Shown here: positions 1 to 334 of the stretch, piece by piece
How positions within the stretch are numbered: position 1 is the first letter of the stretch
Layout of the letters: each line of letters begins with the position of its first letter
Assembly: GCF_003334765.1 (NCBI RefSeq)
Contig: NZ_QOWT01000138.1
DNA length: 334 nucleotides
Strand: one strand, 5' to 3'
Source of the DNA: Escherichia coli
GTDB lineage: Bacteria > Pseudomonadota > Gammaproteobacteria > Enterobacterales > Enterobacteriaceae
Program-made: the position numbers and the translations under genes
Notes under the pieces: model-generated
What the model saw: the letters and a program-made list of their open reading frames with translations, nothing else
Database searches by the model: none
Told to the model about the DNA's origin: nothing

Positions 1-30
1 CCGGCTCTGCCATGGGAGGATTGCCAATGA
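1..30 (+). CDS. citD: 3' end of citrate lyase acyl carrier protein (gamma subunit) gene; last 9 codons plus TGA stop, 5'-truncated by the window edge
   Basis: Frame ending at 28-30 reads ccg gct ctg cca tgg gag gat tgc caa tga = P A L P W E D C Q *. This matches the C-terminus I recall for E. coli CitD, and the gene sits immediately upstream of citE as in the citCDEFXG operon. Only 9 codons are visible, so the call depends on recalled sequence and synteny. Confidence 0.7.
14..20 (+). promoter_or_regulatory. Shine-Dalgarno ribosome-binding site for citE, embedded in the citD coding tail
   Basis: GGGAGGA at 14-20 (core GGAGG at 15-19) is complementary to the 16S rRNA anti-SD. A 6-nt spacer (21-26) separates it from the ATG at 27-29, within the usual optimal range. 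Confidence 0.75.
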
Positions 31-334
31 TTTCCGCTTCGCTGCAACAACGTAAAACTCGCACCCGCCGCAGCATGTTGTTTGTGCCTGGTGCCAATGC
101 CGCGATGGTCAGCAACTCCTTCATCTACCCGGCTGATGCCCTGATGTTTGACCTCGAAGACTCCGTAGCATTGCGTGAAAAAGACACCGCCCGCCGCATG
201 GTTTACCACGCGCTGCAACATCCGCTGTATCGCGATATTGAAACCATTGTGCGTGTCAACGCGCTGGATTCCGAATGGGGTGTTAACGACCTGGAAGCCG
301 TCGTTCGCGGTGGTGCGGACGTTGTGCGTCTGCC
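27..334 (+). CDS. citE: Citrate lyase beta subunit (citryl-CoA lyase), N-terminal 102 codons; 3'-truncated by the window edge
   Basis: ATG at 27-29 is preceded by a strong SD. The frame is open to the end of the window (102 full codons plus 2 nt). Translation: [103 protein letters not shown]. It contains the LFVPG...D-LED...RVN pattern typical of the HpcH/HpaI/CitE family and matches my recollection of the E. coli CitE N-terminus. Codon usage is enterobacterial (ctg, ccg, cgt/cgc, no rare TTA/CTA/TCA). Confidence 0.9.

Follow-up and report, generated by a model that had tools for sequence, protein, structure and literature searches.

Coupling between overlapping genes of E. coli has been examined in native pairs in which the downstream gene's start codon and the upstream gene's stop codon share the letters ATGA. 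In four of five such pairs, all or most of the downstream translation was lost upon an early stop in the upstream gene, and removal of the Shine-Dalgarno sequence (SD) lowered reinitiation by 60–100% in the four coupled pairs (PMC6728339). Coupling drops steeply with distance (PMC10666635), and among E. coli pairs spaced between -8 and +10, those coding for subunits of heteromeric complexes are over-represented 4.5-fold (Huber et al.). In addition, local structure has been proposed to block de novo initiation at coupled pairs (Huber et al.). As a recent review puts it, the choice between reinitiation and RNA unfolding is unsettled in general, and the -4 spacing may abound simply through its ease of evolving (PMC12548453).

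Citrate lyase contains six copies each of its alpha, beta, and gamma subunits (PMC6232273), and the E. coli genes for two of these, b0617 citD (gamma) and b0616 citE (beta), are listed as a -4 pair with the entry 'CMPLX yes' (Huber et al. 2023, PMC10666635). In the same work, the distances recorded for the CitD-CitE COG pair have a median of -4, with q1 of -4, q3 of -1, and n=160 (PMC10666635 Table S4). Our literature search for citD/citE coupling or for the start/stop junction found no paper, and the early Klebsiella and Leuconostoc cit operon papers did not surface in it. In this work, we have analysed a 334-nt stretch of E. coli DNA spanning this junction (hereafter the window), for which a preliminary description had proposed translational coupling by termination-reinitiation.

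Anatomy of the citD/citE junction

The window is the citD/citE junction of E. coli, and 5422 of 5426 complete genomes match its 334 nt at 95% identity or more. The region is found at 5463 places in these 5422 genomes, that is, in more than one copy in some of them, and 2–4 places in the E. coli genome collection are plasmid-borne. For the gene identities we have used full-length proteins from a RefSeq-annotated reference locus that is 100% identical to the window. CitD scores 100.3 bits against TIGR01608 (curated NCBIfam equivalog cut-off 63.5) and CitE scores 452.1 bits against TIGR01588 (cut-off 443.4), while the CitE fragment of the window alone already matches TIGR01588 at 1.1e-40. The two genes had been named correctly in the preliminary description.

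According to the RefSeq annotation of the locus, the operon runs citC-citD-citE-citF-citX-citG-citT with dpiBA as neighbour, and all seven cit genes lie on the plus strand; we take them to be co-transcribed. The spacings along the operon (L001 3661–8937) are +14 for citC-D, -4 for citD-E, +10 for citE-F, +3 for citF-X, -26 for citX-G, and +50 for citG-T. Among the three structural-subunit genes in this region, only the gamma-beta junction is an overlap. An overlapping orphan gene connected with the citrate lyase operon has reportedly been described in E. coli by one paper; presumably this is nog1, which is antisense to citC (L001 3661–4719) and lies outside the window.

The junction letters are 11-CATGGGAGGATTGCCAATGATT-32. 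The 3' end of citD, encoding the citrate lyase gamma subunit or acyl carrier protein, occupies positions 1–30 of the plus strand according to the frame-1 translation, RefSeq, and TIGR01608; its RefSeq CDS covers locus 4734–5030, corresponding to window -266 to 30. Its nine final sense codons read P-A-L-P-W-E-D-C-Q and are followed by the TGA stop at 28–30, where both the frame-1 translation and the RefSeq CDS end (locus 5030). The 5' part of citE, encoding residues 1–102 of the 302 residues of the beta subunit, occupies positions 27–334 of the same strand, as supported by the frame-3 translation, RefSeq, and TIGR01588. It starts with the ATG at 27–29 on the plus strand, where the RefSeq CDS starts (locus 5027) and where database CitE proteins start as well (MISAS), and frame 3 stays open from there to the end of the window. 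The start and stop codons thus form ATGA at 27–30, which is present once in the whole window, and have positions 28–29 in common. These coordinates agree with those read from the letters alone in the preliminary description, whose overlap of "2 nt" is a correct though unconventional count, since by the usual convention the CDS overlap of 27–30 is a 4-nt overlap or a spacing of -4.

The SD of citE, GGGAGGA at positions 14–20 on the plus strand with the core GGAGG at 15–19, forms the strongest anti-SD duplex in the window. Its anti-SD energy is -10.2 kcal/mol, compared with -6.4 kcal/mol for the next-best unrelated site, and this exceeds the strength set by the threshold of Huber et al., in which a strong SD has -8.4 kcal/mol or better. 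The core is separated by a 7-nt spacer from the A of the ATG, and the SD as a whole lies 6–7 nt upstream of the ATG. It is located in the citD codons for Trp (13–15), Glu (16–18), and Asp (19–21), and so the placement of the SD within the last codons of citD had also been recognized rightly. A GGAGG core followed after 4–9 nt by ATGA occurs once in the window, and once in the 10.3-kb locus where 0.36 are expected. Since such a combination is expected just 0.01 times by shuffling of the window (3 of 200 shuffles had one), the arrangement is not due to chance. Searching Rfam over locus 4600–5400 gave no match at E ≤ 1, and a scan of the window for promoter-like or terminator-like sites found none.

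Conservation of the spacing and of the Shine-Dalgarno sequence

The first 60 nt of the window are identical in 5401 of 5424 E. coli records, while over the full 334 nt 1854 of 5422 records show 95–99% identity, i.e., differ by 1–5%. This suggests, if weakly, an extra constraint at the junction within E. coli, since the polymorphisms are inherited by clade. One E. coli genome, TOE17 (NZ_CP069093.1; L086 2440–2540), is a natural case of citE parted from citD. In it, foreign DNA, apparently a prophage end with a Com-family regulator gene, adjoins the citD 3' end, the break lying a little upstream of window position 11; citD is unannotated there, while citE retains its SD and ATG intact.

For a wider comparison, we have surveyed 80 CitE loci from species-level genomes, of which 77 have CitD upstream, and with the window's own locus this gives 78 loci. 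The spacing was taken from the citD stop to the best citE start. It is -4 in 35 loci, -1 in 14, -13 in eight, and -8 or -16 in two, while the gap lies between +1 and +14 in 13 loci and is longer in six, mostly from Bacteroidales. That is, the genes overlap in 59 of the 78 loci (-4, -1, and 10 others), and the spacing is no more than +14 in 72. Because the 78 loci are not independent, we have clustered CitE at 80% identity into 30 clusters, and the approximate distribution becomes 8.5 clusters at -4 and 6 at -1, a further 4.6 having some other overlap, 8.4 a gap of +1 to +14, and 2.5 a longer gap. A spacing of +14 or less is thus kept in ~27.5 of the 30 clusters (~90%).

The -4 and -1 forms occur together in several CitE clusters, and related loci alternate among -4, -1, -13, and small gaps; the Bacteroidales alone range from -13 to +204. 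As judged from these comparisons, the conserved feature is the tight junction, of which -4 is the commonest form, and exactly -4 has not been required in evolution. The distribution in our 78 loci is consistent with the published median of -4 for the COG pair (PMC10666635). Some single cases are also worth recording. In Citrobacter werkmanii (L003), GTG stands at the citE start position. The -13 class comprises L021, L022, L028, L029, L031, and L033, from Aerococcaceae, Streptococcus, Globicatella, Granulicatella, Proteiniclasticum, and Enorma, as well as L030 and L043 from Bacteroidales. In this class, the citE ATG overlaps the Trp codon of CitD (tcATGGaacg.TAA) and AAGGAG lies upstream, so that both reading frames use the same 13 nt.

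The following figures on the SD are raw counts over related loci. Of the citE starts predicted across the 78 loci, 76% are preceded by an SD at or below -8.4 kcal/mol, in comparison with 3% of internal control positions in citE. In ~70 of the 78 loci, a conserved Trp lies 1–5 residues before the end of CitD, and the codon following it is biased. Where this codon encodes Glu, 14 cases have GAG and 2 have GAA (42% GAG in the citE background), and where it encodes Gly, 27 have GGA, 4 have GGG, and none has GGC or GGT (background 24% GGA and 8% GGG). Joined to the GG of the Trp codon, such codons spell GGGAGG or GGGGAGG. The Bacteroidales retain the Trp (…VWKD*) and mostly do not have the SD (7 of 10 loci), the exceptions being L038, L042, and L063 with SD energies of -9.2 to -10.2 kcal/mol; members of this order are said not to use the SD for de novo initiation (Huber et al.). 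Overall, the SD strength and the codon usage show the SD to be under selection on top of the coding sequence.

It can be supposed, as a tentative reading that we would put slightly below even, that the CitD residues after the Trp are mainly dictated by the SD and not by CitD function (E. coli has W-E-D here and Lachnospiraceae have W-G-G), and that the junctions form an evolutionary series from spaced genes (Bacteroidales, without SD) through -1, -4, and -13 to covalent fusions. If this is true, the citDE series would be a handy system to ask what translational coupling adds to complex assembly. We have also searched the PDB by sequence for a solved CitD structure that could account for the conserved Trp near the C-terminus, and found none.

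Probable coupling of citE translation to that of citD

In our view, the translation of citE is probably coupled to that of citD to a substantial extent, by termination-reinitiation. A ribosome finishing citD would reach the UGA at 28–30 with the last sense codon, CAA at 25–27, in its P site. After release of the peptide, the ribosome or its 30S subunit would remain on the mRNA, probably because the 3' end of its 16S rRNA pairs with GGGAGGA (14–20), and a move of 2 nt would suffice to put the AUG at 27–29 in the P site, whereupon citE could start. The translation of citE would thus be tied, at least partly, to that of citD, and this tie would favour equimolar gamma and beta subunits in the alpha6-beta6-gamma6 complex. 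Some de novo initiation at the strong citE SD should probably occur too. The anatomy of the junction, its conservation, and the selection on the SD are shown by the data above, while we infer both the dependence of citE on citD translation and the mechanism of reinitiation, since a strong SD could also support independent initiation.

The latter is indeed the foremost alternative, in which translation of citE would rely mainly on free 30S subunits that the strong SD recruits de novo, and the ATGA would reflect mere genome compaction; we regard it as unlikely, though deserving of more weight than the other alternatives. It is plausible because the SD is strong (-10.2 kcal/mol) and ideally spaced and because folding predictions leave the AUG 89% unpaired. 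The overlap itself evolves easily, since three of ATGA's four bases come with the start codon, and Brown and Wade ascribe the abundance of -4 spacings to this ease. Experience with E. coli argues mostly in the other direction, as upstream translation was required in four of the five tested ATGA pairs, although the ATGA pair bioBF is uncoupled. The comparison of spacings is likewise two-sided: the spacing differs among lineages, as independent initiation would allow, but it stays tight in ~90% of the CitE clusters. The same holds for predicted structure. Across loci, structure is slightly weaker at the citE initiation regions than at internal positions (11.1 vs 14.3 kcal/mol), which suits sites that have to be accessible, whereas in E. 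coli and its close relatives these regions are about as structured as internal coding sequence (14.9–19.5 vs 14.5–16.9 kcal/mol). Furthermore, a ribosome terminating at 28–30 would physically cover both the SD and the AUG, and therefore the two events would not be fully independent on a busy mRNA.

A second alternative, which we consider improbable to a still higher degree, is coupling by RNA unfolding, where ribosomes on citD melt a structure hiding the SD and another ribosome then starts citE. A weak local hairpin (UCCCGGC...GCC..GGGA) is in fact predicted computationally on the plus strand at positions 1–17, beginning 2 nt before the window, with a local fold of -8.3 kcal/mol, and it would pair G14–A17 of the SD with the UCCC just upstream. 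The predicted opening energy of the citE region from -20 to +13 is 14.9 kcal/mol, compared with 5–6 kcal/mol at the other, gapped cit start sites (citC, citD, and citF), and Huber et al. saw predicted structures at coupled pairs but none at the uncoupled bioBF. The hairpin is short, however, and a search for a significant stable fold hiding the initiation region found none, as the stability of the 125-nt fold does not exceed that of its shuffles (z = 0.07). At a spacing of -4, moreover, the unfolding ribosome would itself occlude the site until its departure. RNA unfolding and reinitiation are not mutually exclusive.

The last alternative is scarcely credible: that citE really begins at the in-frame ATG at 12–14 or TTG at 21–23, so that no overlap exists, agrees with a frame open for 31 codons upstream and with one related protein, P0050 (MGENTMISSS), having 5 extra residues before MIS, but we have rejected both starts for their weak SD (-3.0 and -3.3 kcal/mol vs -10.2 for the ATG at 27) and their lack of conservation in relatives, the upstream ATG being GTG in L005 and absent from the candidate starts of 9 of 13 more distant proteobacterial loci (L006–L016), while the MISAS start is found in RefSeq and nearly all database entries.

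Weighing against termination-reinitiation, the citE-citF junction is a gap of +10, so that an overlap is not needed for all three subunits, and the exact -4 form of citD-citE varies among related loci. Beyond correct annotation, the significance of the junction is small. In practice, deletions or insertions at the citD 3' end remove the ribosome-binding site of citE and are likely to be polar on its translation, and refactoring that sets citD and citE apart may alter the gamma:beta ratio.

Natural fusions and comparison with known overlapping pairs

Among distant CitE relatives, we have found natural CitD-CitE fusions that form no fewer than 25 separate clusters when grouped at 50% identity (P0128, P0134, P0140, P0142, P0147, P0149, P0155, P0158, P0161, P0166, P0176, and others; loci L082 2323–3522, L083, L084, and L085). 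Each is a single chain of ~380–425 aa with CitD (PF06857) at the N-terminus, a linker of 7–29 residues, and CitE (PF03328), while P0148 has the reverse order, CitE-CitD. The P0128 fusion was read on four contigs, three of which come from three sequencing runs, and citF follows it directly with a -4 overlap. The P0142 fusion is followed, with a 26-nt overlap, by a gene of 518 residues that has no Pfam hit on record. The fusions contain the two proteins encoded by citD/citE of E. coli in unchanged order, lie beside citF, and impose a gamma-to-beta ratio of 1:1, but they do so by a covalent linker of 7–29 residues and not by coupled translation, and they come from uncultured lineages with 35–50% identity to E. 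coli CitE. As fusion is an extreme way to fix a 1:1 ratio, its repeated occurrence fits selection for this ratio and the stoichiometry rationale given above.

Apart from these, there are singleton 'fusions' close to E. coli (P0001, P0002, P0006, P0007, P0008, P0040, and P0080; 383–400 aa), in which frameshifts at varied points of the citD 3' end lead into the frame of citE; this frame stays open for 31 codons ahead of the ATG. Programmed frameshifting was considered for them and rejected. Since they are singletons, mostly on short contigs, and with differing shift points, their most likely origin is an error of sequencing or assembly or a sporadic mutation.

Overall, the citD/citE junction is a member of the well-described -4 NTGA class of co-directional overlapping genes. 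It is ordinary because the arrangement is conserved, catalogued, and typical of tandem-translated genes. The preliminary description had called it expected and not novel, and this judgement stands: the pair is already known from the RefSeq annotation and from the genome-wide table of Huber et al. 2023, our 78-locus survey agrees, and we see no departure from expectation.

Several known overlapping pairs come close to it. The chloroplast atpB-atpE pair also has a UGA/AUG overlap between two subunits of the same complex and was long assumed to be coupled, and yet atpE is reported to be efficiently translated through its own cis-element (PMC3241655), a warning against taking ATGA alone as proof of coupling. 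In E. coli, bioB-bioF has the same ATGA geometry as citD/citE. However, the SD of bioF is very weak, its initiation region lacks predicted structure, and it initiated de novo, whereas citE has a strong SD and an initiation region that is predicted to be moderately structured. A close likeness is that to hyfH-hyfI, astD-astB, ydbH-ynbE, and menD-menH (Huber et al. 2019/2023), which are native co-directional ATGA pairs of E. coli with the SD inside the upstream gene. For these four pairs coupling was measured by reporter constructs with transcript controls, while citD/citE is known from the catalogue only. Several of the four encode subunits of one complex, as is likewise recorded for citD/citE, and the junction is in line with the general rule by which genes for subunits of a heteromeric complex often overlap by 4 nt and are translated in tandem.
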